A stretch of 64,000 bases of DNA from an uncultured Gemmatimonadales bacterium (GCA_963730185.1 CAVSQW010000008.1:448001-512000), one strand, 5' to 3'. Counted from the stretch's first letter, positions 4,078 through 23,630 are shown. The notes: generated by a model not told the origin, from the sequence alone. Numbers and translations are program-made.

Positions 4078-5427
4078 ATGACCGCCATTGCCCAGGATCC
4101 GGCCCGCCCCAATCTGACCCACGCCGAGGTCACCCGGGACGTCGTCGCAACGCTCCAGACCCCGAGCCGCGGCTACTACCTGGCTCTCGCCACCGCGATC
4201 GGGATGCTCCTCGTCGGCGCGGTGACCTTCGTCCTGCTGCTCAAGGACGGCTTGGGGCTCGCCGGCTACAACCCGCCGGTCTTCTGGTCGGTGTACATCA
4301 CCAACTTCGTCTTCTGGGTCGGCATCGGTCACGCCGGCACATTGATCTCGGCGATCCTCTATCTTTTCCGATCGCCCTGGCGAACGGCGGTGTACCGGTC
4401 GACGGAGGCCATGACGGTCTTCGCGGTCATGACGGCCGGCCTCTTCCCGATCATCCACATCGGGCGCCAGTGGATCTTCTACTGGCTGCTGCCCTATCCC
4501 AACCAGCGGTTCCTCTGGCCCAACTTCAAGTCGCCCCTGATCTGGGACGTCTTCGCCATCGGGACCTACCTCACCGTCTCGACCACGTTCCTCTGTGTCG
4601 GGTTGGTGCCCGACATCGCGGCGGTCCGTGACAAGGTCTCTGGATGGCGGCGGAAGCTCTACGGCGCCCTCTCGATCGGCTGGACCGGCGCCGACAGCCA
4701 GTGGCGCCACTATACCCGCGGCTACCTCTACCTGGCCGCGCTGGCCACGCCCCTGGTGCTCTCGGTCCACTCGGTGGTGTCCTGGGATTTCGCCATGGGG
4801 CTCGTGCCCGGCTGGCACGGGACCATCTTCGCGCCCTACTTCGTGGCCGGCGCGATCTACTCGGGCATCGGGATGGTGCTCACCCTGATCATCCCGCTCC
4901 GGAAGGTGCTCAAGATCGAGCACCTCCTGACTGACTACCACTTCGACAATCTGGCCAAGCTGACGCTGCTCACCGGATCGATCTTGTTCTACTCCTACGG
5001 GATGGAATACTTCGTCTCCTGGTACAGCGGGAACACCTTCGAGCAAACCGCCTTCTTCCGCCGGGCGTTCGGTCCGCAGTGGTGGGGCGGCTGGTCGATG
5101 ATCATCTGCAACGCGTTCGTGTCCCAGCTGCTCTGGTTCAAGAAGATCCGGACCAATCTCACGTCGCTCTTCGTGATCTCGATCTTCATCAACATCGGGA
5201 TGTGGTTCGAGCGCTACGTGATCATCACCTCGTCGCTGTCCAACGATTTCGTACCGTACGCCTGGGGTCAGTTGAATCCGACCTGGGCCGACTGGGGCAT
5301 TCTGATCGGGTCGTTCGGGTGGTTCGGGATGTACTTCCTGATGTTCGCCCGGACCTTCCCCGTGGTGGCGATCCAGGAGATCAAGGAGATGATTCCGATG
5401 CCGCGCCGCAGGAAGGGGGCGCACTGA
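4078..5427 (+). CDS. actC: Alternative complex III ActC, NrfD/PsrC-family quinol-binding membrane subunit
   Basis: Hallmarks ITNFVFWVGIGHAGTLISAIL, SPLIWDVFAI, LVLSVHSVVSWDFA and GMWFERYVII. Confidence 0.95.
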   Translation: MTAIAQDPARPNLTHAEVTRDVVATLQTPSRGYYLALATAIGMLLVGAVTFVLLLKDGLGLAGYNPPVFWSVYITNFVFWVGIGHAGTLISAILYLFRSPWRTAVYRSTEAMTVFAVMTAGLFPIIHIGRQWIFYWLLPYPNQRFLWPNFKSPLIWDVFAIGTYLTVSTTFLCVGLVPDIAAVRDKVSGWRRKLYGALSIGWTGADSQWRHYTRGYLYLAALATPLVLSVHSVVSWDFAMGLVPGWHGTIFAPYFVAGAIYSGIGMVLTLIIPLRKVLKIEHLLTDYHFDNLAKLTLLTGSILFYSYGMEYFVSWYSGNTFEQTAFFRRAFGPQWWGGWSMIICNAFVSQLLWFKKIRTNLTSLFVISIFINIGMWFERYVIITSSLSNDFVPYAWGQLNPTWADWGILIGSFGWFGMYFLMFARTFPVVAIQEIKEMIPMPRRRKGAH

Positions 5428-5939
5428 TGGCCAAATCCGAAACCGGCGTGCTCGCGTCCTTCGTCTACGAGGACTCGGCCGTCGAAGCGATCAAGGGACT
5501 CAAGTCCAAGGGGTTCCGCGATCTGACGGTCTACTCGGCCGCGCCGAATCACCATCTCGAGGAGGCGCTCGACCAGCCGATCAGCTGGGTCCGTGCCTTC
5601 ACCCTGGTCGGTGGCCTGACTGGCTGCAGCGCCGGCTTTGGGATGACGATCTGGATGTCCCGCGACTGGCCCCTCTTGGTCGGCGGTAAGGCCATCGCGG
5701 CCATCCCGCCCTACGTGGTGCTCGCCTTCGAGCTCACGATTCTCTATGGTGCCATGTTCACGGTGCTCGGCATCGTCGTCCTCTCGGCACTCAAATCACT
5801 CAGGGGCCGACCCTTCCGGCCGTCCTTCAGCGACGACCAGATCGGAATCTTCGTGCCCTGCCGGCTCGATCAGCGCGCCGACGTTCACCGGTTCCTGGAG
5901 CAGGTGGGCTCGGAGGAGGTGTCGGACCATGGCGCGTAA
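5427..5939 (+). CDS. actD: Alternative complex III ActD (DUF3341)
   Basis: Starts MAKSETGV, overlapping the actC stop (TGATG); two TM segments; WPLLVGGK and FELTIL motifs. Confidence 0.9.
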   Translation: MAKSETGVLASFVYEDSAVEAIKGLKSKGFRDLTVYSAAPNHHLEEALDQPISWVRAFTLVGGLTGCSAGFGMTIWMSRDWPLLVGGKAIAAIPPYVVLAFELTILYGAMFTVLGIVVLSALKSLRGRPFRPSFSDDQIGIFVPCRLDQRADVHRFLEQVGSEEVSDHGA

Positions 5940-6525
5940 GCCTTCCCGCTGGCTCGCCGGGCTGGCCTTGCTGTCATTGGCCGGCTGTAACTGGTACTAC
6001 AACACCCTCCCGTCGCCGGACGATCTGATGAAGCTCGTCCCGTGGTTCGACTTCATGGTCACCTCGCCCCGGGTCTCACCCTACCAGAGTGACTCGGTGC
6101 CCCGGAACACGGTGCCGGGCACCGTGCCGATCACCGGGGGCGAGCCGGATTGGGGCACCGGAAACGTGTCGATGCTGGTCTATGCCTTCGACACGCTGGC
6201 GGCCAATGCCCTCACCAACCCGCTGCCGCCGGGTCGCCTGGCCGCTCGGGGAGATACCGTTTTCCATACCTTCTGCTCGGCCTGTCACGGCAACACCGGC
6301 GCCGGTGACGGCTTGGTCGGCAAGCGGATGGGGGCACTGTCGCTCCTCACCGACAAGGCCAAGGCCTACAGCGATGGCTATCTCTACAGCATCATCCGCT
6401 ACGGACGGGGCGTCATGCCGCGGTATGGGGACAAGATCTTCCGCTTCGACGAGCGCTGGGCGGTCGTGAACTACGTCCGCAAGCTGCAGGGGCGCGCGCC
6501 GGCGTCCCAGGGAGCGGCCCAATGA
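5929..6525 (+). CDS. actE: Alternative complex III ActE, monoheme cytochrome c lipoprotein
   Basis: Lipobox LAGC; PGTVP motif; single CSACH; GRGVMPRY distal Met; ERWAVVNYVRKLQ. Confidence 0.9.
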   Translation: MARKPSRWLAGLALLSLAGCNWYYNTLPSPDDLMKLVPWFDFMVTSPRVSPYQSDSVPRNTVPGTVPITGGEPDWGTGNVSMLVYAFDTLAANALTNPLPPGRLAARGDTVFHTFCSACHGNTGAGDGLVGKRMGALSLLTDKAKAYSDGYLYSIIRYGRGVMPRYGDKIFRFDERWAVVNYVRKLQGRAPASQGAAQ

Positions 6526-7869
6526 GCACCGCCGAACTTCGCCAGCGCCTCATCGCCCGCGGCAACGCCGGGAGCTACAACCTGTTCTTCTCGCTGGGTG
6601 TGGTCCTGGCGGTGGTCGGGGCCGCGCTCTTCGGGTGGGCCCTGATGGGCGGGGAGCATGCCGATCGGGCCTGGCAGCTGTTCCACGTCAATTGGCTCTT
6701 CTTCACCAGTCTCTCGGGCGGCAGTCTCGCGCTCGTGGCGGTCCACAAGCTGGCCAACGCCAAATGGTCCGGGGTGATCATTCGGCTGGCGGCGGCCAAC
6801 CTGTTCTTCACCGTGGTCTCCGTCCTCGGCTTGGTGGCCATCTTCACCGTTGGCTACCAGCCGATCTTCGGACCCATGCACGAGCAGCTCCATACCCTGT
6901 CGCCGGGCAAGGCCCTCTGGCTCAGCCACGGCTTCATGTTCGGTCGGCTGCTGGTCGGCCTGCTGGTGCTCTACGGGATCGGCTGGGCGCTGATCCGGGC
7001 CGACATGGTGCCCGACATGCACCTGGCGCTCGGTTCGGTCGGGGACGACCGGCGGGCTCGGTACGAGCAGCTGACCCGGGGGTTCGACGGCTCGGACGCC
7101 GCCCGGGCGGCGCAACACGCCAAGATCAACCGGCTGGCCGGCTTCTTCATCCCGGTCTACGCGTTGGTTTTCACCATGGTCGCCTTCGACGGCATCATGG
7201 CGCTCCAGCCGCACTGGTACTCGAATCTGCTGGGCGGTTTCTTCTTCATGGGCGCGTTCCTTGGCGCCCACATGCTCCTGGTGCTCCTGATGATCTACGG
7301 GCGCCGCCATCTCGGGATCGCCGATCTGGTGAGCTCCAAGCAGCGCCACGACCTCGGCAAGCTCTGCTTCGGCTTCACGGTCTTCTGGGCCTATCTGATG
7401 TGGTCGCAGTTCCTGGTGATCTGGTACGGGAACATGCCCGAGGAGACCGGCTTCGTCTTCGCGCGGCTCTGGGGGCCATGGATGCCGATCGGCCGGTGGG
7501 TGTTGCTCGGCATGTTCGTCATTCCCTTCTGGGGTCTCTTGTTCGTGGTCGCCAAGAAGACGCCGCTTACTCTGGGACTCTTTGCGACGGTGAGCCTGGT
7601 GTCGCTCTGGATCGAGCGGTACCTCCTGGTGCTGCCGACCGTGACGCCGATGCCGGGCCCGGTGTTCGGTCTGCCCGAGCTGGGACCGACCCTGCTCCTG
7701 GGCGGGCTCTTCCTGGCCTGCTACGCCCTCTTTGCCCGGCGGTATCCGATGATCTCGCCCCAGGCTGGCGGAGATCACCCTGGCGAAGGAAATGAGCCAC
7801 GGCGAAGGCGACCTCGAGCACGAGGAGCGCGCCGGCGACTATGCTCACCCGAAGGAGCTGGAGGCGTGA
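6522..7869 (+). CDS. actF: Alternative complex III ActF membrane subunit (probable +1 indel near 7760)
   Basis: Polytopic protein with PHWYSNLLG, HDLGKLCFGF and WSQFLVIWYGNMPEET. Removing one C from the run at about 7758-7761 gives the tail PRLAEITLAKEMSHGEGDLEHEE...ELEA* ending at 7869. The uncorrected ORF ends at 7892. Confidence 0.88.
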
Positions 7870-7871
7870 AG

Positions 7872-8045
7872 GTAGTGACTGGTGATTCGTGACTGGTGAC
7901 TAGGGGGTGAGTGGGCGGTAGGGAGTAAGGGGCGGAGGGGGTAGAGGCAACGACCAGGGGGTGGTGAATCGGAAGATCCGACTCACCACCCCCTATTCAC
8001 GACTCCCCACTCCCTCCCTAGTCACGACTCCCCACTCACTAATCT
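7872..8045. repeat. Low-complexity intergenic element with a G-rich left arm, C-rich right arm and central hairpin, between convergent genes
   Basis: Short GTGACTG-type tandem units; hairpin AGGGGGTGGTGA(7956-7967)/TCACCACCCCCT(7983-7994); duplicated TCACGACTCCCCACTC. Confidence 0.65.
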
Positions 8046-8067: not shown

Positions 8068-9108
8068 TCAGTCGCGCAGATCGATCTGTTGCGCCAAGGC
8101 GTTGAGGGAATCGGCCGGGAAGCTGCCGGTTACGGCCAGGATCCGGAGACCGCGCCTGGTGCCGCCCTTCCCATCGGAGAGGTAATCGGGAGGCGTGAAG
8201 CTCGCCGCGCTGCTGTTGAGGCGACGACCGGCGCCTTTCGCGACCAGCGCCTCGACCCGCTCGAACGGTCCCTCGATGGTTCGAATCACCCCACCGGCCG
8301 GATGCTGTTGCGAGACGACGACGATCGGTCGCTCGTCATCGGACGCGCGTTGGATCTGGACGTCGAGGACCGTCAATCCGTTGACGTACGGTACGTTCCC
8401 GCCGGTGAGCGCCTGAGCCTCCTGCCAGTCGACCGATTGCCAGAGTCCCTCGAACGGGACCGGGGGCTCGTCGTCGGCGGGGCTCAGGGAGGTCACTTGT
8501 ACCGCGACCGGGGTGGCGGTCACTCGGGGATCGCGGGGCGGGGCGGCCGCGAGTTGGACGCCGGGCGCGGCGTCGGCATGGACCACCGGCGGCTGCTGGG
8601 CGGGTGATGCCTGGCCGCGGAGCGCGTTGCTGTCGCTGGCCACCTGGATCGGGGTGACCGCGGTCAAGGTCCGCTCGGCTGGCTGCGCGGGTTCCGTGAC
8701 CGTCTGGGCCGCCATGTCCGTCTGGTCGGCGGCGGCCGAGGCGCGAAGGGCGCCCCGAGCCAGCCAACCGGCCGCGATGGCGCCGATCAAACTCGCCGCG
8801 ACCAGCGTGCCCTGAAGCAATCGGGTCCGGACCTGGCGCCGGTGGACGGCGATGGCCCGGCCCCGAGCGCGGAGTTGCTCCAGCGGCGGTGGCAGAATGA
8901 CCGACCGCGGCGTCGTCTCGGCGAGCAACGCCGTGACCCGGTCGCGAGCGGCAGCCACCTGATCGCGCTCCACGGCGCATCGGTGGCACTCCGCCAAGTG
9001 ACACTCGATCTCCACGCACTGAGAGCGGCTCAGTGCCTGGTCGAGGTACGCGTGGAGTTCGTCCTCAGGAATGTGCCGAGCGTTGTCGGCCGAAATCCAT
9101 CCGGTCAT
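8068..9108 (-). CDS. Zinc-binding (zf-HC2) anti-sigma factor with TM helix and extracytoplasmic domain
   Basis: HIPEDELHAYLD...HLAECHRC ZAS motif; TM segment; immediately downstream of an ECF sigma gene. Confidence 0.85.
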   Translation of the reverse strand: MTGWISADNARHIPEDELHAYLDQALSRSQCVEIECHLAECHRCAVERDQVAAARDRVTALLAETTPRSVILPPPLEQLRARGRAIAVHRRQVRTRLLQGTLVAASLIGAIAAGWLARGALRASAAADQTDMAAQTVTEPAQPAERTLTAVTPIQVASDSNALRGQASPAQQPPVVHADAAPGVQLAAAPPRDPRVTATPVAVQVTSLSPADDEPPVPFEGLWQSVDWQEAQALTGGNVPYVNGLTVLDVQIQRASDDERPIVVVSQQHPAGGVIRTIEGPFERVEALVAKGAGRRLNSSAASFTPPDYLSDGKGGTRRGLRILAVTGSFPADSLNALAQQIDLRD

Positions 9109-9580
9109 AAGCCTCAAGAAGTCGCTTGCGAGCCCGCGCCAAGGTGGTCCCGATCGCTCCAACAGCCAGGCCCGTCTGCTCCGCGATTTCGGGGTAGCTG
9201 AGTCCGGCGTCCCACAACAACAACACTTCCTTATCGCGCGCGGAGAGGGTCTCGAGCGCTTCGTTTACCTGCTCGCGGCGCTCCTGATCCTCCACCGCCT
9301 CGTGCGCCCCGGTATTCGGGGTCGAAAGCGGCACCGGGTCGTTGGCGAGCAGCGTCAGATGCTTCTTGCGCCTGACCGCGGCCCTCGCCTCGTCCCGCGC
9401 CAAATTGGCGGCCACGGCGAACACCCAGGCCCGGGGCTTCTCAGGATTATGAGCCATGGCTCGGATGAAGACCTCCTGCGCGAGGTCTTCGGCCCGATCG
9501 GCGTCCCAGACCTTACGGTACAGGAAGCGCACCACAGCGGAATACGTCGATTTGTAGAGGCGCTCCAGCTCGTCGGTCAT
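9065..9580 (-). CDS. ECF-type RNA polymerase sigma factor
   Basis: Region 2 (AEDLAQEVF, WVFAVAANLARD) and region 4 (GLSYPEIAEQTG...GTTLARAR). Confidence 0.93.
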   Translation of the reverse strand: MTDELERLYKSTYSAVVRFLYRKVWDADRAEDLAQEVFIRAMAHNPEKPRAWVFAVAANLARDEARAAVRRKKHLTLLANDPVPLSTPNTGAHEAVEDQERREQVNEALETLSARDKEVLLLWDAGLSYPEIAEQTGLAVGAIGTTLARARKRLLEAYDRMDFGRQRSAHS

Positions 9581-10494: not shown

Positions 10495-10539
10495 GGCGGA
10501 AAGCTAGGCACTAGAGGATTGGATGGGAGGGTCCTATAT

Positions 10540-10557
10540 TTGTGAACCTTTTCACAA
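10540..10557. promoter_or_regulatory. Perfect Rex-type operator (contains a CRP-like TGTGA-N6-TCACA core)
   Basis: TTGTGAA-CCTT-TTCACAA in the divergent region, about 95 bp upstream of the cupredoxin ATG. Confidence 0.75.
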
Positions 10558-10651
10558 GAGCTTGCGCGCCCCGGGACCCTGGCGCGCTACGATGGACATA
10601 CCGGGTTCGACTCGATCGATTGGAACCACCTTCTGGGAGGCTGAGGTAGCG

Positions 10652-11125
10652 ATGCGACAGATGCGATTGATGGCGGGGGCGGCGGCCCTGATGCTGGCCG
10701 CGTGCGGTGGTGGGGAGAAGGCTCAGCCGGCGGCCGAGCCGGCGGCCGCCGAGCCTGCGGCGGCGCCGGCGGCGGCTGCGGGTGCGGTTCACGACGTAAA
10801 CCTGGTGCTGGAGGGGACCACCTACAAGTTCGTCCCCAACGATTTCACCATCAAGCCGGGCGACAAGGTGGTCTTCCACAACGTGAGCGGCGGCCCGCAC
10901 AACGTGCAGTTCTGGGCCGACAGCATTCCGGCCGGTTCCGCCGAGGCCCTCGACGCGGCGATGCCGGGCGACAAGCTCGGTCCGCTCAATGGGCCGCTCC
11001 TCACCGAGCCGAACGAGACCTACGCGGTCACCTTCCCGGCCACCCTGCCGAACGGGGAGTACCATTTCACGTGCACGCCCCACATGGCGATGGGGATGCA
11101 CGGGAAGCTGACGATCGCTCCGTGA
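10652..11125 (+). CDS. Plastocyanin/azurin-family type-1 blue copper lipoprotein
   Basis: Lipobox LAAC; Ala/Pro-rich tether; copper ligands in PHNV and CTPHMAMGM. Confidence 0.92.
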   Translation: MRQMRLMAGAAALMLAACGGGEKAQPAAEPAAAEPAAAPAAAAGAVHDVNLVLEGTTYKFVPNDFTIKPGDKVVFHNVSGGPHNVQFWADSIPAGSAEALDAAMPGDKLGPLNGPLLTEPNETYAVTFPATLPNGEYHFTCTPHMAMGMHGKLTIAP

Positions 11126-11185: not shown

Positions 11186-11249
11186 GAGGGTCGCGACGGC
11201 CCGGGCCAGCCGGGCATCCTCTCGGTACCCATACCTCACGGGAGCCTTG

Positions 11250-12400
11250 ATGCGCCTCGTCCTGATCGGCCTGATGGCCGCGGCCGCGTTGCCTGGACCG
11301 CTCTGGTCCCAGACCCCGGTCCCCCTCAAACCATCCGCAAAGCTCACCCATGAATTCAGCTCCATCACCGGCCTGCGGGAGCTCGCCGACGGGCGGGTCG
11401 AGGTTTCGGACGGGATCGACGGCGTTCTGATCCGGGCCGACTTCGCGACCCAGACGCTGGATACGATTGGGCGGAGTGGCGAGGGGCCCGGGGAGTACCG
11501 GAGCCCGGACGCGCTGTTCGCCCTTCCCAATGGTGCCACCTTGCTGGTCGACCTGGGGAACGCGCGGCTGTCGATCTTCGATGCCGCCGGGAAGTACCGA
11601 GAGTCGACCCCGATCATGGAGGGCCGTCCCGGTGGACCGGGTGGCCTCACCCTGATCATCCCGTCCGCCACCGATCGGATGGGGCGGATCTACTTCCAGC
11701 CCGGGGTCAGCCGGGCGCCGACTCGGGCGCGGTGCTTCGCTGGAACCGCTCCACCGGGAAAAAGGACACCGTGGCCACGATCCGACTGCCGACGGTGATC
11801 ACCTCGAGCTCCGGCGGGCCCAATGCCCGCTCCGTGAATCAGCGTCCGCCGCCCTATCCGTTGCAGGATGGATGGGCGGTGGCGCCCGACGGGCGGGTGG
11901 CCCTCGTCCGGGCGCCCGCGTACCGGGTTGATTGGGTGGATCCGGCTGGCCGACTGCACCGTGGGCCGCCGCTCACGGCCGAGCCGGTCCGGATCGGGAA
12001 GGCGGAGAAGAAGGAGTACCTCGAGGATCTGGCGGCCAGCGGTGTTCGGGTTCAGGCCGAGGATCGGAATGGCCGGATGTCGATCAGCATGTCGCGGGGT
12101 GGAGGGAATCCTGACGAGGATCCGTTCAGCGCGGACGAGTGGCCCGATAGCAAGCCGCCCTTCGTGTCGGGAGGCATCCGGGTCGGGCCCGACGGCTTGG
12201 TGTGGGTCGAGCGGTCGGTGGCCGCCGGTGCCCCCGACCTCTACGACGTGATCGGCGCGGACGGCGGACTGGTCCGCCGGGTCACGCTGCCGGCCGGCTA
12301 CCGGATCGTGGCCGTCGGCGCCCGAGGAGTGTACGCCCGCCGGATGGACGACAACGGGATCAGCTGGCTGGAGCGGTTCGATCGACCCGGGTCGAAATGA
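11250..12400 (+). CDS. Secreted beta-propeller-like protein (frameshift near 11700)
   Basis: Signal peptide; IGRSGEGPGEYRSP motif of 6-bladed/NHL-like propellers. ORFs 11247-11798 and 11732-12400 join if one C is added at CAGCCCGGGG (YFQPRGQPGADSGAVLRWNR). Confidence 0.75.
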
Positions 12401-13208
12401 CCATCGCCACGGCCGCCACGCCGAGGCCGGCGATGGCGTCGACGCCGTAGTGCATCTGGCAATACACCACACCCACGGTCAGCAGCAGGGCGGGGAGCGC
12501 GAGCAGCGCTCCCCAGCCCGGCGCCTCTCGAGCCGTCGCCGCGACGGCGGCCCAGGTGCCAGCCACGTGTGACGACGGAAAGGCCGCGCCGAACGAGCTG
12601 CCCCCCGACAGCACTCCGTACACCAGCCGGGCTGGGAGATTGGCCGTGAACCAGGCCGCCGGCCGGGGGAACACGTAGTACGGCCCCGCGACCGGGAAGA
12701 AGATGAACCAGAGGTAGCAGATCACGAACGCGGTCATGATCGTGAACACGGACCGTCGGGCGGAAGCCTGGTCGTGCCGGAGGAGGAACAGCGCAATCGG
12801 GAAGGGGACGATCACGTAGTAGCCGAAGTAGGCCGCGTGGCCGATCGCCGAGGCCAGCCGGCTCGGGGCGAGCTGCCACCAGCGGTGGCTTACCTGCATC
12901 CCGAAGAGTGCCTGCTCGGCTCCCTGCATGATCGCGTCGTGGGTGGGACGGCTCCCGAATCCGTTGATCACGTCGAGCGCGCCATAGAGGGCCAACAGCA
13001 GCACGATCGGCGCGACGGTCCGGGCGGTCCGGCCGAAGCGGCCGAGGTCGGGCGCTTGGAACGAGAGCAAGAGCACCAGCAGGAGCAGGTGACCCAGCGC
13101 GACCCACCAGATCGCGGGATTCTCCCCGGCCCTGACGATCGACACCGCGATCACCACGCCGGCGTAGCCGGCCAGGAGCCATTCGGTGGGTCGGGGCTTC
13201 AGAGCCAG
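12360..13208 (-). CDS. PAP2-superfamily membrane protein resembling Aur1/inositol-phosphorylceramide synthases (PAP2_3 type)
   Basis: Multi-TM protein with FFPVAGPYY, AAFPSSHVA and YCQMHYGVD catalytic motifs. The start is uncertain (in-frame CTG at 13208 or 13202, overlapping the upstream stop). Confidence 0.8.
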   Translation of the reverse strand: MALKPRPTEWLLAGYAGVVIAVSIVRAGENPAIWWVALGHLLLLVLLLSFQAPDLGRFGRTARTVAPIVLLLALYGALDVINGFGSRPTHDAIMQGAEQALFGMQVSHRWWQLAPSRLASAIGHAAYFGYYVIVPFPIALFLLRHDQASARRSVFTIMTAFVICYLWFIFFPVAGPYYVFPRPAAWFTANLPARLVYGVLSGGSSFGAAFPSSHVAGTWAAVAATAREAPGWGALLALPALLLTVGVVYCQMHYGVDAIAGLGVAAVAMVISTRVDRTAPAS

Positions 13209-14164
13209 CCCCGGGCCCGATACCAGGCGAGCGTCTCCTCCGCGCCCCGCGCGAGGTCGTGGGTGGCGACCCAGCCGGTGGCCTCGGTGAGGGGGGCGGG
13301 GTCGCAGGTCCACGCCGGCTGGAAGAACTCGTTCGCCTTGTCGTAGTTGAGGACGGTAGCCCGCCCCAGGAGACGGGCGGTCGTGTCGGTCACCCGCAGG
13401 GCCGCCCGCCCGACGAGCTCGGGCAGGCCGACGACCCGCACCCGGCGGCCGGCCGCCCGACCGACGGTCTCCACCAACGAGCGGCTGGTGACGATCTCGG
13501 GGTGGGCGGGATAGTAGACCCGACCCCGGGTGGCGTCACTCTGGCCTGCGCTGACCAGGGCGGCGGCCAGGTCGGGTCCGTAGACGAGGCTCAGCCGCTG
13601 GGAGCCGTCGCCGAACACGGGGGCGAACCCGAAGGCCGCCGCTTTGAAGACCCGGAGCATCTCCTTGTCGCCCGGCCCGTAGACCACCGGCGGCCGGACG
13701 ATCGTCCAGGCCAGTCCGGACTCGCGCACCACGTCCTCGCCGGCCAGCTTGCTCCGGCCGTATCCGGTGACGGGGTTCGGGGGCTCCGGACCGCGGAGCG
13801 GCGTGTCGCTGGCGGGCCCGCCGGCCGCCAGTGAGGAGACGAACAGCAGCCTCGCGACACCGGCGGCCTCGGCGGCCTGAACCAGGCGCCGGGTGCCCTC
13901 GCGGTTCACTTCGAGGAGCTCGGCCTCGCTCCGCGCCGCGATGAGGCCGGCAACGTGGAAGACCAGGTCCTGCCGCGCGGCGGCCCGGTCGAGGGCCGGC
14001 AGATCGAGCAGATCGCCGACCACCAGCTCCACGCCACGCTCCGCCAGCGAACGGGCTTTCTCGGTGGACCGGACCAGGGCGGTGACGTGGAGGCCCCGGG
14101 CCAGCAGGACATCGATCAGGTGGCCACCGACGAACCCCGTCCCGCCGGTGACGAGCACCCTCAT
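13199..14164 (-). CDS. cerR: NAD-dependent epimerase/SDR, probable ceramide reductase
   Basis: MRVLVTGGTGFVG Rossmann motif; YGRSK catalytic motif; RPPVVYGPGD. The functional call rests on synteny with spt and the GNAT gene. Confidence 0.7.
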   Translation of the reverse strand: MRVLVTGGTGFVGGHLIDVLLARGLHVTALVRSTEKARSLAERGVELVVGDLLDLPALDRAAARQDLVFHVAGLIAARSEAELLEVNREGTRRLVQAAEAAGVARLLFVSSLAAGGPASDTPLRGPEPPNPVTGYGRSKLAGEDVVRESGLAWTIVRPPVVYGPGDKEMLRVFKAAAFGFAPVFGDGSQRLSLVYGPDLAAALVSAGQSDATRGRVYYPAHPEIVTSRSLVETVGRAAGRRVRVVGLPELVGRAALRVTDTTARLLGRATVLNYDKANEFFQPAWTCDPAPLTEATGWVATHDLARGAEETLAWYRARGWL

Positions 14165-15294
14165 GCGGAGCGCTCGTACATCCGGTAGGTCTTGTAGGGG
14201 TGGAAGCCCATCTTGATCAGGCCGGCGTTCATGGCGGAGTTGTCTTCCAGGATCCACCCGGCCTCGCCCCAGGTCATCCCGAGCTTCCCCGCCTTGGTCC
14301 AGATCCAGTGGTAGAGCATCGCGTCGATTCCCTTACCGCGGTGCTCGGGCAGCACGCCCAGCAAGAGGATCCGGGCGCGGGTCATCCGGCGGGTCTTGAG
14401 GGCCCAGAGCAGCTTCAGCGCGGACGGGAACATCCGGCCCTGGCGATTGGTCTTGAGGACCTCGTTGAAGTCGGGCAGGGTGAGCCCGAACCCGACCGGC
14501 TGGCCGTCGATCTCGGCGAAGGGCACCAGCTCGGGGACCACGACCGGGCGGAACTGCTGCGCGAGATGCTCGATCTCGTGATCGGTCATCGGGATCGCAC
14601 CCCAGTTGTTCTCCCAGCAACGGTTATAGAGATCCTTGACCCGCTCCACCTCGGCGGTGAAGTCCCGGAGCCGGATGGCACGGAGGGTCACCCGGTAGCG
14701 GCGCTGGCCGATCTCCACCGCCCGGCTGATGCGCTCGGGCGGGATCACGTAATGGTCGGGAGCACCCCCTTCGTAGGCGATCAGGTCCTTGACGCCCGTG
14801 AGCCCCGCCTGTTCCAGCAGGGGCGGGTAGTAGGCCGGGTTGTGGGGCATCATGATGGTGTTGGGGCGGTCGAAGCCCTGGACCAGGAGGCCGCACTCGT
14901 CGTTCACCGAGAAGGACGCCGGCCCCCGGATCGTGGTGAACCCCCGCTCGCGGCACCAGGCAGCGGCCGTATCGAGCAGGGCCTGGGGCACCTCGGGGTC
15001 GTCGATCGACTCGAGGAAGCCGAAGAACCCGACCCGATCGTCGTGGGTCTCGTTGTGGAGGCGATTGGCGATGGCCGCGATTCGCCCCACCACCCGGCCA
15101 TCCCGCCAGGCGAGGAAGTAGTCTGCTTCGGCGTGCTCGAAGAAGGGGTTCTTGGCTCGGTTCAGGAGGAGCTTCACGTCTCGACGCAACGGCGGGACCC
15201 AATTCGGGTCCCGCGCGTGCAATCGGAACGGCAGATCGATGAAGCGGCCGAGGTCGCCCGAGGTCGGACCGGGCGGAACGGAAACCGAGGTCAG
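14161..15294 (-). CDS. bcerS: GNAT-fold protein, probable bacterial ceramide synthase
   Basis: FIDLPFRLHARDPNWVPPL, NPFFEHA, VGRIAAI, GFFGFLESIDD, MMPHNPAYY, LLGVLPEHRGKGID and WILEDN motifs typical of the roughly 370-aa family that includes bCerS; directly downstream of spt. The start is uncertain (CTG overlapping the spt stop). Confidence 0.75.
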   Translation of the reverse strand: MTSVSVPPGPTSGDLGRFIDLPFRLHARDPNWVPPLRRDVKLLLNRAKNPFFEHAEADYFLAWRDGRVVGRIAAIANRLHNETHDDRVGFFGFLESIDDPEVPQALLDTAAAWCRERGFTTIRGPASFSVNDECGLLVQGFDRPNTIMMPHNPAYYPPLLEQAGLTGVKDLIAYEGGAPDHYVIPPERISRAVEIGQRRYRVTLRAIRLRDFTAEVERVKDLYNRCWENNWGAIPMTDHEIEHLAQQFRPVVVPELVPFAEIDGQPVGFGLTLPDFNEVLKTNRQGRMFPSALKLLWALKTRRMTRARILLLGVLPEHRGKGIDAMLYHWIWTKAGKLGMTWGEAGWILEDNSAMNAGLIKMGFHPYKTYRMYERSA

Positions 15295-16502
15295 ATGACG
15301 CCCAGCTCGCGGCCGATCCGCCCCACCGTCTCGAGGCAATAGTCGATCTGGTCCGCCGTGTGGGTGGCCATGACGCTGGTTCGAAGCCGGCACTGGGAGG
15401 GCGCCACCGCCGGCGGGACCACCGGGTTGGTGAACACCCCGGCGTCGAAGACCTTCCGCCACATGACCAGCGTCTTGTCGAGCGGACCGATCAGGATCGG
15501 AACGATCGGCGTCTCGGACGGTCCGGTCTCGAAGCCCAGGTTCCGGAATCCTTCGGCCAGCCGGCGGGTATTGACCCAGAGCTGCTTCGCGCCGCTCGGG
15601 CTCGGTCTGGATCACTTCGACCGCCGCGAGCACCCCGGCCGTGTTGGCCGGGTGGCAGGGCGGCGGTAAAGATCAGGGGACGACTGTGGTGGCGGAGGTA
15701 GTTGATCACCTGGCGCGACGCCGCGACGAAGCCGCCGATCGAGGCCAGCGACTTGGAGAACGTGCCGGCGACGATGTCGACCTCGTCGGTCAGTCCGAAG
15801 TGAGCGGCGGTGCCGTCGCCGTTCGGACCGAGGACGCCGATCGAGTGCGCGTCGTCGACCGCGAGGGCGGCGCCGTAGCGGCGGCAGACCTTGAGCAGGC
15901 CGGGCAGGTCGGCGATGTCGCCTTCCATGGAATACACGCCGTCGACGATGACCATCCGGCCGCCCGGCTCGGCGCACTGGGCGAGCTTCCGCTCCAGCCC
16001 GGCGAGGTCACCGTGATTGAACCGGACGGTGTTCCCATAGCTCATCTTGGCGCCGTCGACGATCGAGGCGTGGTCGAGCTTGTCGAGGAACACGACATCG
16101 CCCTTGGACACCAGGCCGGAGATCAGACCCAGATTGGCGTTGTAGCCGGTCGAGAAGACGATGCAGTCCTCCTTGCCGAGGAACGCGGGCGAGCGCCTCT
16201 TCGAGCTGGAGGTGCAGGTCGAGGGTGCCGTTCAGGAACCGGCTCCCAGTGCAGCCCGAGCCGTAGATGTGCAGGGCCCGGGTCGCGGCCTCGAGGACCT
16301 TGGGGTGGTGGGTCAGGCCGAGGTAGTTGTTCGACCCCAGCATGATCCGCTTCTGTCCTTCGATCACCACCACCGTATCTTCGGACTCGGAGATCGGCTT
16401 GAAATAGGGGTAGAGCCCCTGCGCCTTGACCTCGTCGGCCCGGGTGTACCTGCGGCACTTCTCGAACAACGAGATGTCGGTATTGATCGTCGGCGTCGAC
16501 AC
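15291..16502 (-). CDS. spt: Serine palmitoyltransferase (alpha-oxoamine synthase family), interrupted by three +1 indels
   Basis: [39 protein letters not shown] and PLP-lysine GTFSKSL. Removing one base each at about 16188, 15651 and 15586 restores a roughly 400-aa protein ending GRELGVI*. Confidence 0.8.
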
Positions 16503-16727
16503 GGAGCCCCAAAGGTGGAAGGGTAGCCAAAATGCTACTCGATCCCATTGCGGAATAACAGGTTAAGCTAACGGCCCCTAGCTCGTGACACAAGTATGTG
16601 ACGTTCCAGAGTGCGGCGCCTTGCACTCCCTCCGGCCGGGCCGCCGGGGTCAGGGGGCGGTCCCGATATTATTGTTATTCCGTCGGATAACGCGCCGGCT
16701 CGAGGCCGGCCCTTACGGTGTGGAGCG

Positions 16728-19028
16728 ATGCAGCGACAGCTTCTGATCCTGGGGTTGACCATCCTGGCTGGCCTTGCAGGGCCCTTGGTCCCGGCGGCGC
16801 GGGCCCAGACGGTCCAGCCAGGGCGGTTCGAGGTCCCGGGGCTCGACTGGGGGCCGAACGCGGCTTGGCGCCGGCAGGCACGGCAGGTCAGGGCCACCCG
16901 ACAGGCCATGCTCAAGGCCGGACGATTCGGTCTGCTCAACGCCCCGCCCCTGTTCGCCCTCGCGGCACCCGGGGGGGCGAACGGCACCGCGGTGACGGGG
17001 GTCTTCAACGTCCCGGTCATTCCTTTCGCGTACTCCGACGTCCCCGCGCCCTATAGCAAGCAGGAGTTCCAGGACGTCCTCTTCCAGACAGCACCGCCGT
17101 ATGGTCGCCCCTACACGCTCAAGACGTACTACGAGGAGCTGTCGCACGGACTGATCCAGATGTTCGGCACGGTGTTCGATCCGGTGCGGACCGACAGCAC
17201 GGCCGAGTATTACCAGCAGAACTGCAACGGGCTCAACCTGCCGGGTCGGACGGCCTGTCCCGACAACGGCAAGCGCTTCGGCAACATGCTGATCGCCGCC
17301 CTGGATTCGATCACCAATCGGCCCGGCGGCGACACGGTCTGGGCTGAGTTCGACAACGACGGCCCCGACCACCAACCGAACTCGGGTGACGACGACGGGG
17401 TCGTCGACTTCGTGACTTTTCTGCAGCCGACGGTCGACGGCGCTTGTGGCACCCCAGGCATTTGGGCCCATCGGTGGGTGATCTCGGTCTGGAACGGCGG
17501 GTCGCCGTACGTGACCAAGACTCCTTGGGCGGGGCACCCGGGACAGTTCATCAAGGTGGAGAACTACACCATCCAGAGCGAGGTCGGTGGAGCGAGCGGC
17601 TGCGACCACCCTCAGGGAATGACGGCTCCGATCATGCCGATCGGCACCATCGCTCACGAGACCGGCCACGCCTTCGGCCTCCCCGACCTCTACGACACCC
17701 AGACCGGCACCGAGGGGATCGGAGAGTGGGGAATCATGGGAAGCGGCAACTACGCCAAGGCATTCAGCCCAGCCCAGTACGATCCCTGGTCGATGAGCCA
17801 GCTGGGATGGATCACCGTGGCGCCGCTGACCCAGACCTCGGTGATCACCACCGGGCCGCGCCAGCTGACCGACACGGTGTTCATGGCGCAGAGCCCCAGC
17901 CCTGACGAGTACGTCCTGATCGAGAACCGGCAGGCAGTCCACTCCGACTCGGCGATGTTCGATCCCAACAACACGGCGTCGCCGACCGGGACGCCCCCCT
18001 GCAAGTCCAAGTGCCGGAAGGTGCCGGGACTCCTGATCTGGCACATCGACGACGGCCGGATCCTCCAGGGGCAGGGGTCCAACACCATCAACACCGGTCC
18101 GATCCAAGGGGTCGAGGTGGAACAGGCCGACGGCCTCAACAATCTGCGGAGCACGAGCTCCACGACCCGGAACCGGGGCGATGCCGGGGATACGTGGCCC
18201 GGCGACTCGAGCCGGGTGGTGTACGGGTTCCGCACCAACCCCGCCGCCAAGACCCACTACAGTGAGTACGACGGCTTCGTGATCGATCAGATCGCGGACC
18301 TGGGCGGCGGGGTGATGCGGTTCCGTTACCTCCAGCGGGGCCTGACCGTGGTGCGATCGAACACGCTGGGCGCCCTGATTCGCTTCGACGGGGCGCCCTG
18401 GGCCACGTACTCGGACGCCCTGCCGGAGGGAACGGCGTTTACGGTCGGGGTCGACAGCGTTCAGGAGACGGTGCCGGGTGTGAGCCGAGCCGCGTTCCTG
18501 AACTGGAGCAACGGCGGGCCGCGGGAGCAGGCGCTCACCAGCGGGCCGGTCCCCGACACCCTGGTGGCGAGCTTCGCGGTCGAGCATCGCCTCAAGGTGA
18601 CGGAAACGGGTGGCGGGCTCGGGACGGTGACGGCCAGCGTCAACGGCGACTTCGGGGCCGGGGTGTTCCTCCCGGCGGGGACGCCGGTTACCCTCACGGC
18701 CGCGCCGAGCGGGAGCGACGTCTTCGCGGGCTGGCGGGGCGACACGACGTCGATCGCGACCGAGATCACCTTGCCCATGAACCGGGCCTACACGCTCGAG
18801 GCGTCGTTCGTCGCCTTCGTGGACGTCACCTTGTCCGACGCCACCGACGACATCCTCGGCACCCCCAAGCTCTCGGCGGCGCAGAAGACCTTCCTCGACG
18901 GGCTGGGGAATCGGAACGGATCGTACGACGTCGGCGACTATCTGGCCCTCCTCAAGCGGAACGGGCAGGCGGTCCCGGAGGCCGTGGTGCGGGCACTGAA
19001 GGCGGCCCCGGCCGGAAAGGGCCAGTGA
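16728..19028 (+). CDS. Secreted M6-family (immune inhibitor A-like) metalloprotease with C-terminal beta-sandwich repeats and a dockerin-like tail
   Basis: Signal peptide; HETGHAFGLPDLYD zinc motif; WGIMGSG Met-turn; EYVLIENRQ; GLLIWHID. Confidence 0.88.
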   Translation: MQRQLLILGLTILAGLAGPLVPAARAQTVQPGRFEVPGLDWGPNAAWRRQARQVRATRQAMLKAGRFGLLNAPPLFALAAPGGANGTAVTGVFNVPVIPFAYSDVPAPYSKQEFQDVLFQTAPPYGRPYTLKTYYEELSHGLIQMFGTVFDPVRTDSTAEYYQQNCNGLNLPGRTACPDNGKRFGNMLIAALDSITNRPGGDTVWAEFDNDGPDHQPNSGDDDGVVDFVTFLQPTVDGACGTPGIWAHRWVISVWNGGSPYVTKTPWAGHPGQFIKVENYTIQSEVGGASGCDHPQGMTAPIMPIGTIAHETGHAFGLPDLYDTQTGTEGIGEWGIMGSGNYAKAFSPAQYDPWSMSQLGWITVAPLTQTSVITTGPRQLTDTVFMAQSPSPDEYVLIENRQAVHSDSAMFDPNNTASPTGTPPCKSKCRKVPGLLIWHIDDGRILQGQGSNTINTGPIQGVEVEQADGLNNLRSTSSTTRNRGDAGDTWPGDSSRVVYGFRTNPAAKTHYSEYDGFVIDQIADLGGGVMRFRYLQRGLTVVRSNTLGALIRFDGAPWATYSDALPEGTAFTVGVDSVQETVPGVSRAAFLNWSNGGPREQALTSGPVPDTLVASFAVEHRLKVTETGGGLGTVTASVNGDFGAGVFLPAGTPVTLTAAPSGSDVFAGWRGDTTSIATEITLPMNRAYTLEASFVAFVDVTLSDATDDILGTPKLSAAQKTFLDGLGNRNGSYDVGDYLALLKRNGQAVPEAVVRALKAAPAGKGQ

Positions 19029-19436: not shown

Positions 19437-21617
19437 ATGGAGCGGCGCGAGTTTCTCAAGGTGAGCGCGGCCACCGGGGCCGCCCTGACGCTGGCGGTGT
19501 CGCTCGACGGCTGCGGTGCCGAGGCTCTGCCGGCGGGCCCCGCCGGGAGCTTCGCCCCCAATGCCTGGATCCGGATCGACGACCAGGGCACGGTGACCGT
19601 GATGGTCGACCGGGCGGAGATGGGGCAGGGGGTGAGCACGGCCCTCCCGATGCTCGTGGCCGAGGAGCTCGACGCGGACTGGGAGCGGGTGCGGTTCGAG
19701 GCGGCCCCGGCCAACGAGGCCTACTACAACCCGCTGCTCAAGGCGCAGATCACCGGTGGGAGCACCTCGATCCTGGCGGCCTGGACGCCGCTCCGGCGGG
19801 CCGGGGCCGCGGCTCGCGCCATGCTCCTGTCGGCCGCGGCGCTGGAGTGGGGGGTGGAGGTCGCCGCCTGCCGGACCGAGGCCGGCGAGGTGGTCCACGA
19901 GGCCTCCGGGCGGCGGGCGGGGTATGGAGCCTTGGTCCCGCGGGCCGCCACCCTCGCGGTGCCGGACCAGGTTGCCCTCAAGCCCCGAACGGCCTATCGC
20001 CTGATCGGCACTCCGGTGCCCCGACTGGACGTTCCGGACAAAGTCACCGGTCGGGCCCGTTTCGGGGCCGATGCCGGGCCGGCCGGGGTGTTGGTTGCGG
20101 TGGTGGCGCGATGCCCCGTCTTCGGGGGCAAGGTCGTCCGCTACGACGGGGCTCGGGCGCTGGCGGTCCCCGGCGTCAAGCAGGTGGTGCCGATCGACAG
20201 CGGCGTGGCGGTGGTGGCCGAGCACACCTGGGCCGCCCTGGAAGGGCGGAAGGCCCTCGAGGTGACCTGGAACGAGGGACCGGACGCGACCATCGACGAT
20301 GCCGCCATCCGGGCCGAGCTCGAGGCCCTCACGGGCGAGGCCGGCGCGTCGGCTCGGCGCCTCGGAGATCCTGGCGGCGTCAACCCGCCCACCCGGATCG
20401 AGGCGGTCTACGAGGTTCCCTACTTGGCGCATGCCACGATGGAGCCGATGAACTGTACCGCCGATGTGAGCTCGGACGGCGTCACCCTGTGGGTGCCGAC
20501 CCAGTTCCAGGCCGGGCCGAGCTACTTCGCGGGGGGTGGGGCGCGGGGCGTGGCGGCGAGCGTGGCCGGCGTCGGGACCGACCGGGTGACGGTGCACACG
20601 ACGATGCTGGGCGGTGGGTTCGGCCGGCGGAGCGAGCTCGACATGGTGGGCGAGGCGGTGGCCGTGTCGAAGGCCGTCGGGGCGCCGGTGCGGCTGCAGT
20701 GGACCCGTGAGGACGACACCCGTCACGACCGGTATCGCCCGGCGGCCCGACATGTGATGACCGGCGGGCTCGCGGCCGACGGCACCCCGGTCCTCTGGCA
20801 GCACCACATCGCGTGTCAGTCGATCATCCGGAAGTTCATGCCCGGGTTTCTGCCTCGCTGGGCCACCCGGATCGCCGGGCCGCTCAAGGGCGGGGTGGAC
20901 GCGAACGCGATCGAGGGCGCGGCGGACCTGCCCTATGCGATTCCGAACCTGGACGTCCGGTACTCGGAGGCGACGCTGCCGATTCCGGTGGGGTTCTGGC
21001 GCTCGGTGGGGCACAGCCACACGGCCTTCGCGGTGGAGAGTTTCATCGACGAGATGGCCCACTCCGGCGGCAAGGACCCGGTGGAGTTCCGACGGTGGCT
21101 GCTTCGAGTGGCACCCCGCCACCTCGCGGTGCTCGACCTGGCGGCCGAGCGGGCGGGATGGGGCACGGAGCCGCCGAAGGGACGGTTCCGCGGCGTGGCC
21201 GTGCACGAGTCGTTCGGGAGCTTCGTCGCGCAGGTGGCCGAGGTCTCGGTGGAGCAGGGGACGATCCGGGTGCACCGGGTGACCTGCGCGATCGACTGCG
21301 GGGTGGTGGTGAACCCCGACATCGTCAAGGCCCAGATGGAGGGTGGCATCGCCTATGGCCTCTCGGCGGCCCTGCACGGCGGCGTCACGATCGAGAAGGG
21401 CCGGGTCCGGCAGGGGAACTTCAACGACTACCGGGTCCTCCGGATCGACGAGATGCCGGTCGTCGACGTACACTTGGTGCCGAGCGACCAGCCACCGGGC
21501 GGCGCCGGCGAGCCCGGCACCCCGCCGATCGCCCCCGCCGTGGCCAACGCGGTCTTCGCGGCGACCGGGACCCGCCTGCGGTCGCTCCCGTTGGTGATAG
21601 GGAGTAGGGAATCGTGA
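19437..21617 (+). CDS. Xanthine-dehydrogenase-family molybdopterin-binding subunit (isoquinoline 1-oxidoreductase beta type)
   Basis: Tat signal [45 protein letters not shown] and GAGEPGTPP motifs. Confidence 0.9.
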
Positions 21618-21763
21618 GTAGGGAGTAGGGAGGGAGTAGGGAGTGGGCAATGGGGGTGCGCGTCCCCGAGGGGCTGCTCACCGCCCCCTCCCGATTCACC
21701 ACTCCCTCCCGATTCACCACTCCCTCACTCACCACTCCCTCCTCCCGATTCACTAGTCCCTAC
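21598..21763. repeat. Second G-rich/C-rich intergenic repeat element between convergent genes
   Basis: GGGAGTA heptamer units on the left; tandem CCCTCCCGATTCACCACT-type units on the right. The CCGATTCACCAC unit is the reverse complement of GTGGTGAATCGG in the 7872-8045 element. Confidence 0.65.
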
Positions 21764-23630
21764 TTGCGACCTCATCAGCCGGCTGGCTGGTGAAGTCCTC
21801 CCCCGGGTTGATGAACCGGTCGCGCTCGATCCGGTACTGCTTCTCGTACAGCTGCCGGTAGCGTCCGTCGACCGCGAGGAGCTCGGCGTGGGTGCCGCGC
21901 TCCACGACCTGACCTTCTTCGATCACCAGGATCTGGTCCGCGCTCATGATGGTGCTGAGCCGGTGGGCGATCACGAACGTGGTCCGACCGGCCCGGAGCG
22001 ACTTGAGGCCGTCCTGGATCAGGGCTTCGGACTCGCTGTCGAGGCTCGAGGTGGCTTCGTCGAGCAGCAGGATGGACGGGTCGGCCAGGATGGCGCGGGC
22101 GATGGCGATCCGCTGGCGCTGACCGCCCGAGAGCCGGACTCCGCGTTCGCCGACGATGGTGTCGTACCCGTTCTCGAAGTCCTGGATGAACTCGTCGCTG
22201 TGGGCGATCGTGCTGACTCGCTTCACGTCCTCCATCGTGGCGTCGGGCCGGGAGAAGCGGATGTTGTCCGCCACGGTTCCGTCGAACAGGAAGTTGTCCT
22301 GCAGGACGATGCCCAGGTGGCTCCGGTAGTCCCGCAGCTTGAGCGTGGCCAGGTCGGTTCCGTCGAGCAGGAGCCGGCCCTGGGTAGGCCGGTTGAAGGC
22401 CATGACCAGGCTCATCAGGGTGCTCTTCCCCGAGCCGCTCGATCCCACCAGGGCGGTCGTGGTGCCGGCCGGCGCCTTGAACGAGATTCCCCGCAAGACC
22501 GGCGTGCCGGGGTTGTACTCGAACCAGACGTCCTGGAACTCGATCTCGCCGCGGACCGTGTGCAGGGGACGGCGGTCGACATCCTCGTCGTCCTCGGTCG
22601 CGGTTTGCCGGAGGTCGCGAATCCGGTCCAATCCGGCGAAGGCCTCGCTGACCTGGGTGCCGATCGAGGCGAGTTGGATGAGCGGAACCGCGATCATGCC
22701 GGTAAAGAGCACGTACATGAAGTAGTCGCCGACCGTCATCGCCCCGCTCAGGACCCGGCCTCCGCCCACCACGATCATCAGGGCTCCGATGGCGCCCACG
22801 ATCACCGACGAGAAGGCGCTCACGGCCGAGACGCCGGTCATGGTGGTCGCCACGTTCCGGAACAGCCGGTGCACGCCCCGGGCGAAGACCAGCTCCTCGC
22901 GGCGCTCGGCCACGTACGACTTGACCACCCGGATCCCGCCCAGCGTCTCGGTCAGACGACCGGTCACCTCCGCGTTGATCTTGCTCCGCTCCCGGAAGAT
23001 GGGGCGCAGCTTGGTGAACGCGACCGACATCCCGCCGGCGAAGAGGAGGAGCACGACCAGGGTGATCGCCGTGAGCTGCCAGTTCAGGAAGAACAGGATG
23101 CCGAGCACGATCACCGCGGTCACCAGGCCGCCGGTGATCTGGACCAGGCCCGTTCCGACCAGGTTTCGGATGCCCTCGGCGTCGCTCATGATCCGGCTCA
23201 CCAGGGTGCCGGTCTGGGTGGCATCGAAGGCCCGGACGGGTAGCCGCACCACGTGCTCCATCACGGCCCGGCGCATGTCCGTGATGGCGCGCTGAGCCGC
23301 GATGCCGAGCATCCGGGTCAGGGCGAACGAGGTTGAAGCCTGGATCAGGGTCGCGACCACCGCGGCCGCCGCGATGGCGAGCAGCTGGCCATGTCGATCC
23401 GCCGGCAGGAGGCGGCTCAGCATCGGGCTCATCGCCGGGCTCGGGGTCGAGACCGGCATCAGCACGTGATCGATCAGGAACTTGGAGCTGCCGGGCAGCA
23501 CCAGGCCGGCCAGGCGGTTCACGAGCATGATTGCCATGCCCAGGCCCAGCCGGCGGCGGTGCTTCCAGATCAGGGCCCGTGCTTCGACCCAGGCGGCCTT
23601 GTAGTTGGTCTTGCGTTTTGGCGGAGTCAT
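21753..23630 (-). CDS. ABC exporter, fused permease and ATPase (MsbA/MdlB-like)
   Basis: TM domain plus Walker A GSSGSGKS, LSGGQRQR signature, LLLDEATS and IAHRLST. Confidence 0.93.
   Translation of the reverse strand: MTPPKRKTNYKAAWVEARALIWKHRRRLGLGMAIMLVNRLAGLVLPGSSKFLIDHVLMPVSTPSPAMSPMLSRLLPADRHGQLLAIAAAAVVATLIQASTSFALTRMLGIAAQRAITDMRRAVMEHVVRLPVRAFDATQTGTLVSRIMSDAEGIRNLVGTGLVQITGGLVTAVIVLGILFFLNWQLTAITLVVLLLFAGGMSVAFTKLRPIFRERSKINAEVTGRLTETLGGIRVVKSYVAERREELVFARGVHRLFRNVATTMTGVSAVSAFSSVIVGAIGALMIVVGGGRVLSGAMTVGDYFMYVLFTGMIAVPLIQLASIGTQVSEAFAGLDRIRDLRQTATEDDEDVDRRPLHTVRGEIEFQDVWFEYNPGTPVLRGISFKAPAGTTTALVGSSGSGKSTLMSLVMAFNRPTQGRLLLDGTDLATLKLRDYRSHLGIVLQDNFLFDGTVADNIRFSRPDATMEDVKRVSTIAHSDEFIQDFENGYDTIVGERGVRLSGGQRQRIAIARAILADPSILLLDEATSSLDSESEALIQDGLKSLRAGRTTFVIAHRLSTIMSADQILVIEEGQVVERGTHAELLAVDGRYRQLYEKQYRIERDRFINPGEDFTSQPADEVASRD

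Follow-up and report, generated by a model that had tools for sequence, protein, structure and literature searches.

Ceramide formation in bacteria proceeds through the serine palmitoyltransferase Spt, the acyltransferase bCerS and the reductase CerR, a pathway described for Caulobacter and Bacteroides fragilis (10.1101/2023.05.23.541633). In Saccharomyces cerevisiae, a phospho-head group is added by the inositol phosphorylceramide (IPC) synthase Aur1 (PDB 9vj4, 9ivc; PMC13133130), whose active site is luminal, and in Bacteroides thetaiotaomicron the Aur1-like protein BT_1522 is reported to make phosphoinositol dihydroceramide (PMC9246714, PMC8791184). Hence, both the chemistry of Aur1-type enzymes and an Aur1-type route in bacteria are already known. 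Here we describe a 64,000-nucleotide stretch of DNA from an uncultured Gemmatimonadales bacterium (GCA_963730185.1 CAVSQW010000008.1:448001-512000, hereafter the window), in which all three enzyme families of the ceramide pathway are found together with a membrane enzyme of the PAP2_3/Aur1 type. As a first-pass annotation of the window had claimed, the four genes are co-oriented and overlapping, and lie on the minus strand from 16502 to 12360 (Table 1). The locus differs from the described pathway in being a compact, overlapping unit with a Spt of the Bacteroidota type and an additional PAP2_3 gene, and in containing no acyl carrier protein (ACP) or acyl-ligase gene.

Based on gene identities assigned by sequence, synteny, the predicted fold, the conservation of a catalytic triad and the content of head-group donor genes, we hypothesize that the four genes form one translationally coupled unit, the products of which synthesize dihydroceramide and then transfer to it a phospho-head group from a glycerophospholipid, a prediction that we hold to be likely, if short of firm. 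The operon itself is real and conserved, its assignment to ceramide formation is well supported, and the PAP2_3 protein is a probable head-group transferase of a separate family. By homology, Spt would condense serine with an acyl thioester, bCerS would N-acylate the 3-keto base to form an oxidised ceramide, and CerR would reduce the ketone of this intermediate. The PAP2_3 enzyme would follow the ping-pong chemistry of Aur1, in which D255 activates H251, H251 takes up the phospho-head group as a phospho-histidine with release of diacylglycerol, and H212 activates the C1 hydroxyl of ceramide as the acceptor of the phospho-head group. By analogy with Aur1, the active site is predicted to face the periplasm, an orientation to which a count of loop charges lends weak support. 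CerR of Caulobacter is reported to be periplasmic (PMC11087976), and if both late steps take place on this one face of the membrane, the tight coupling between cerR and the PAP2_3 gene would be explained.

The first gene is predicted to encode a serine palmitoyltransferase, an assignment supported at the level of the family. SerpalmtaseCFB is the top NCBIfam model for all four intact relatives of the protein (518-541 bits, as compared with 387-397 bits for bioF), the best PDB matches are the SPT structures 8guh/3a2b (420 bits; next 303), and in a quick tree of 11 rows the window protein clusters with proteins of spt clusters (SH-aLRT 95). By these three measures, neither BioF nor Kbl is as close to it as characterised Spt. 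Both are accounted for, since the genome carries separate Kbl-like and BioF-like genes, two further superfamily members located next to a threonine-dehydrogenase-like gene and to biotin genes, respectively (neighbours named by eye). Alternatively, the alpha-oxoamine synthase could use another amino acid, for instance cysteate or alanine, and give rise to a sulfonolipid or a deoxy-ceramide, which would have no C1 hydroxyl to cap. In line with this, the cut-off of SerpalmtaseCFB (640), a model built for Bacteroidota, is not reached by the relatives, and cysteate-C-fatty acyltransferase belongs to the same superfamily; however, its score of 235 bits is far below that of the SPT structures, and a gene of the Aur1 fold, which depends on the C1 hydroxyl, is kept alongside. 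We therefore regard the use of another amino acid as improbable.

The earlier annotation, right in its gene set, was silent on the fact that the Spt reading frame is spread across three frames by single-base insertions at about 16184, 15648 and 15586. The base at 16184 is absent from near-identical contigs of other public runs (three of four runs), and those at 15648 and 15586 are absent from near-identical contigs, one contig each, at a depth of 2.2. As these contigs lack the extra bases and intact relatives match Spt without a break along 402 residues, the insertions are most likely assembly errors. Decay of the operon in the source organism, with spt as a pseudogene, would also be in line with three frame breaks, and just two of ten checked genes are split in this assembly (17 contigs, 82% complete). 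Against this, each extra base is missing from near-identical contigs of other runs (for two of the bases on one low-depth contig), and the window Spt is 90% identical to an intact relative with a branch length of 0.034; we consider decay very improbable.

The GNAT-family acyltransferase encoded by the second gene is 35-41% identical, across ~99% of its length, to Escherichia coli YghO, a Sphingomonas N-acetyltransferase and a Roseomonas 'dATP pyrophosphohydrolase'. The gene for the Sphingomonas protein lies near spt, acp and a gene for a short-chain dehydrogenase/reductase (SDR), and the Roseomonas match comes from a sphingolipid-type cluster. The named relatives of the window GNAT point to Gemmatimonadales as the origin of the DNA. 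The predicted start of the window gene is a CTG inside a CTGA overlap with the stop codon of spt, and all 90 Spt-GNAT junctions compared (some from duplicated loci) have an NTGA overlap, CTGA in 79 and TTGA in 11; the 60 bases that follow often contain no ATG, GTG or TTG. With a CTG start, the start of the GNAT gene will be miscalled by gene callers. The junction between the GNAT and SDR genes is an ATGA overlap. Of all proteins of the genome, the window SDR is by far the best match to the SDRs encoded in the spt-acp clusters of Sphingomonas and E. coli (129 vs 74 and 98 vs 49 bits, respectively), and it has a C-terminal motif in common with them. The names bCerS and CerR denote family assignments made via these syntenic stand-ins rather than via Caulobacter CCNA_01212 or CCNA_01222 or via BF9343_4240. 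Homology thus backs the identities given earlier to Spt, bCerS and CerR, and supports a match of the first three genes, as judged from their sequences, to the known bacterial ceramide pathway.

When the PAP2_3 and generic PAP2 models are compared on the fourth protein, only PAP2_3 exceeds its cut-off (56.5 bits, cut-off 27; generic PAP2 20.8 bits, cut-off 27.2). The predicted structure matches yeast Aur1 along the whole length, the H-H-D triad (H212-H251-D255, numbered from the 13202 start) is invariant, and D89 and Y125 are likewise invariant in the family (59/59). By model score, fold and triad, the protein falls among the Aur1/Ipt1-like LPT enzymes. In a test of the sphingomyelin synthase family, SMS/SMSr was not the closest fold. 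PAP2 phosphatases use the same triad, and the three upstream genes could make ceramide while the PAP2_3 protein acts as a lipid phosphatase or a phospholipase-C-like hydrolase, for instance of ceramide-1-phosphate. LpxE and PgpB-type enzymes do occur in the fold lists, where they rank below Aur1, and in a profile search the E-value of LpxE is marginally better than that of Aur1 (0.0014 vs 0.0026); however, the LpxE match is limited to residues 209-272, whereas the Aur1 match covers residues 60-271. Phosphatases such as PgpB, LpxE and LPP have the motifs C1 (KxxxxxxRP) and C3 (SRxxxxxHxxxD), which hold the phosphomonoester. Each of these basic motifs is missing from all 126 PAP2 homologues, which makes a transferase likelier than a phosphatase, and the operon contains no kinase gene. 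The ceramide-phosphate phosphatase that had been put forward as an alternative is weakened by these findings and appears unlikely.

The Aur1-like fold and the intact triad agree with the Aur1-like character previously claimed for the protein, but the 'eukaryote-like route' then ascribed to it has already been published for bacteria with BT_1522, and the window PAP2 is an orthologue of neither BT_1522 nor Aur1. It is 18% identical to S. cerevisiae Aur1, and the signatures PAAPPWY, SLH and HHY of Aur1 and BT_1522 are replaced in the window family by PVxGP, SSH and xHY. The BT_1522 clade was compared through a syntenic stand-in from Prevotella, one record of which contains two PAP2_3 genes above the cut-off. 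The first has PIP-synthase-like and GtrA-like neighbours, as does BT_1522; its product shows the same triad and 20% identity to the window PAP2 (E 9e-4). The second follows a CerR-family SDR gene, and its product is 27% identical to the window PAP2 (E 1e-14). A profile of 126 Gemmatimonadota-type sequences gives 102 and 106 bits to two SDR-linked Bacteroidales proteins and 18 bits to the BT_1522 type; the reverse profile, built from 117 BT_1522-type sequences, gives 15.6 bits to the window PAP2. On these sequence comparisons the window protein stands outside the BT_1522/Aur1 IPC-synthase clade, in a separate CerR-coupled family, and while BT_1522 is encoded with inositol genes, the window PAP2 is encoded with cerR.

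This family comprises 773 clusters at 50% identity (E up to 1e-30, with a profile including two Bacteroides rows). Among its members are Bacteroidales proteins annotated as 'phosphatase PAP2 family protein', such as WP_237923849.1 of B. finegoldii, which have the same CerR-family SDR upstream; the 10-base overlap between the PAP2 start and the last codons of the SDR gene, seen in many Gemmatimonadota, is also found in B. finegoldii and P. massiliensis. These proteins differ from the window protein in being encoded away from spt and bCerS, beside rnr and dusB in the case of B. thetaiotaomicron, and in a loop insertion of ~25 residues, and their donor may differ. The pairing is not universal, as the SDR occurs without PAP2 in Parabacteroides distasonis and Aureispira. 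No PAP2_3 gene is annotated in the opened clusters of Roseomonas, Sphingomonas, E. coli, Aureispira, Streptomyces and Rubrobacter, and a search of 201 Gemmatimonadota genomes, run without a positive control, returned no BT_1522-type gene. A literature search, the coverage of which excluded most subscription journals, found no paper on the CerR-coupled PAP2_3 family, and neither Gemmatimonad nor PAP2 is mentioned in the accessible main text of PMC11334938.

A synteny survey shows that the operon is conserved and no product of chance. Among 80 GNAT-centred loci, 63 have enough downstream and 68 enough upstream DNA; the SDR is found in 63/63, PAP2 in 62/63, in each case after the SDR, and the alpha-oxoamine synthase in 68/68. 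As the loci are kin and not independent, these counts are descriptive and not statistics. Across the 201 genomes, which include the unpublished genome G179 for these phylum tallies only, PAP2 is present in 114 and Spt in 119 (E up to 1e-125), and the patterns of the two agree in all families except f8, with no PAP2 and Spt in 3/3. PAP2 lies <4 kb downstream of Spt, on the same strand, in 98 of the 119 Spt genomes, and it is kept at three loci of family f3 whose GNAT has gone. SDR and PAP2 could instead form a lipid-tailoring module of their own, in which PAP2 has an acceptor other than ceramide, or serves to anchor CerR in the membrane or to present its substrate. The 10-base overlap is kept away from spt in Bacteroides and Phocaeicola and also in a paralogous cassette, where the pair is accompanied by a desaturase, another SDR and a CAAX-type protein. 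However, PAP2 directly follows the GNAT, with no SDR between them, in three genomes of family f4, its presence tracks that of Spt across families, and the invariant catalytic triad would not be needed by a pure scaffold. Hence, a separate module also seems unlikely.

Several related arrangements are seen in other loci. The paralogous cassette (L229:4118-9594, L158, L169) consists of genes for a hydrolase, a fatty-acid desaturase (L229), a CerR-like SDR overlapping PAP2_3, a second SDR and a CAAX-type protein. Another PAP2 paralogue follows a radical SAM gene, near a GMC oxidoreductase (L195:4712-9685, L206). In Rubrobacter and Streptomyces (L145:9227-11296, L144:9045-10292), the gene after spt-GNAT-SDR belongs to the LTA-synthase family (sulfatase fold) or encodes a condensation domain, and the product of this fourth gene is in either case another candidate tailoring enzyme. 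One locus labelled Acidimicrobiia (L088) carries the operon with a Spt of 73% identity, resembles Gemmatimonadales loci and is possibly mis-binned.

As for the head-group donor, the genome has MIPS with a neighbouring phosphatidylinositol-phosphate (PIP)-synthase-like gene, as well as paired pssA and psd and a PgsA-like gene. The PIP-synthase-like gene and MIPS are on a contig other than that of the operon, which does not lie in an inositol-lipid cluster. In a further region (L137:4582-14100; G000 C7 433-443 kb), two CDP-alcohol phosphotransferases are encoded together with an LPG_synthase_TM protein and a class III aminotransferase, a cluster that suggests another, as yet unexplained lipid head-group pathway. 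We consider phosphatidylinositol most probably the donor in the phylum; of the likelihood given to head-group transfer it takes the larger part, with small and nearly equal parts left to phosphatidylglycerol and to phosphatidylethanolamine or several donors. In family f6, no psd match was found in any of the 11 genomes, whereas MIPS is present in 11/11 and the linked operon in 10/11. In each of the five f6 genomes examined (G086, G109, G217, G127 and G113, three of them single-contig), PIP synthase is paired with MIPS and a PgsA-like gene is present, and in none of the five was a PssA-like best match found. Without psd, phosphatidylethanolamine made by Psd is not the donor in f6, and phosphatidylinositol or phosphatidylglycerol can be; the family thus favours inositol (or glycerol) over ethanolamine as the head group there. 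The f6 lineage may be one without phosphatidylethanolamine. In two genomes, G074 and G124, Spt is present and no match was found for the window-type PAP2, PIP synthase or MIPS, a pattern that fits a joint loss of PAP2 with phosphatidylinositol.

Other observations weigh against head-group transfer from phosphatidylinositol, or against the transferase itself. Phosphatidylinositol, phosphatidylethanolamine and phosphatidylglycerol are all possible donors, as the genome carries genes for all three, and the marker genes are near-universal in the phylum (MIPS 189/201, psd 183/201), the former number suggesting that inositol lipids are a general trait of it. The f6 genomes are mostly of one genus (8/11), so that their loss of psd may be a single event, and the evidence on the phosphatidylethanolamine route there covers psd (11 genomes) and PssA-like genes (five), other routes not having been searched. 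Because the Aur1/BT_1522 signatures are replaced, inositol specificity cannot be transferred from these proteins. Deletion of BT_1522 is reported to remove nearly all IPC, with residual IPC left (PMC9246714, PMC8791184), and the Bacteroides member of the window family is therefore not the main IPC synthase. In four of four unlinked Spt loci that were cut out (G074, G137, G176, G133), PAP2 is absent beside Spt-GNAT-SDR, and three of these four genomes have MIPS; a fifth unlinked genome has a PAP2 paralogue far from Spt, and the inspected loci cover five of the 21 unlinked Spt genomes. The paralogous SDR-PAP2-SDR cassette has no Spt match within the loci examined, the Spt relatives fall short of their model's cut-off, as described above, and a targeted literature search found no sphingolipid study on Gemmatimonadota.

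Table 1. Genes of the predicted ceramide operon and the inositol-lipid gene pair of the genome
Feature	Position	Strand	Domain
Spt (alpha-oxoamine synthase, Bacteroidota-like type), ~402 aa	15291..16502	minus	Aminotran_1_2
bCerS-family GNAT acyltransferase, 377 aa if CTG start	14161..15294	minus	Acetyltransf_1
CerR-family extended SDR, 321 aa	13199..14164	minus	Epimerase
PAP2_3/Aur1-fold membrane enzyme, 280-282 aa, CTG start	12360 to 13202 or 13208	minus	PAP2_3
PIP-synthase-like gene adjoining MIPS	L136:9049-11094 (G000 C15 437-439 kb)		

Next to the operon, 11247-12400 codes for a predicted secreted protein in two frames (11247-11798 and 11732-12400) with no Pfam match, probably another assembly frameshift, and 16611-19028 for a divergent metallopeptidase of the M6 family (immune inhibitor A type), with homologues located upstream of spt in many relatives. 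Elsewhere in the window are a run of membrane and cytochrome-c-like genes (4078-7892), which by eye resemble subunits of alternative complex III, an ECF sigma factor with a zf-HC2 anti-sigma factor (8068-9580), a plastocyanin-like lipoprotein (10523-11125), a TAT-exported molybdopterin-binding subunit (19437-21617) and an ABC exporter (21753-23630).

The family may also bear on the sphingolipids of Bacteroides, 35-81% of which are reported to be phosphoethanolamine (PE-)dihydroceramide (10.1101/2022.08.11.503646), and for which a homology search for a PE-ceramide synthase is reported to have given no match (PMC8791184). In B. fragilis, deletion of cerR is reported to lead to accumulation of keto-dihydroceramide (10.1101/2023.05.23.541633), and we infer that the Bacteroides SDR overlapping PAP2 is this cerR. 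It is tempting to speculate, though we would rather doubt than assume it, that the CerR-coupled PAP2_3 proteins constitute, in bacteria, a second widespread class of enzymes that transfer phospho-head groups to ceramide, with a donor that has shifted between phyla, forming IPC in Gemmatimonadota, and that the Bacteroidales member is the dihydroceramide phosphoethanolamine synthase and also makes the IPC that is left in BT_1522 mutants. If head-group transfer by this family is true, phosphosphingolipids would be predicted for more than half of the Gemmatimonadota genomes sampled, and the Bacteroides protein would be a candidate for making the main gut-Bacteroides sphingolipid, in an easily handled commensal.

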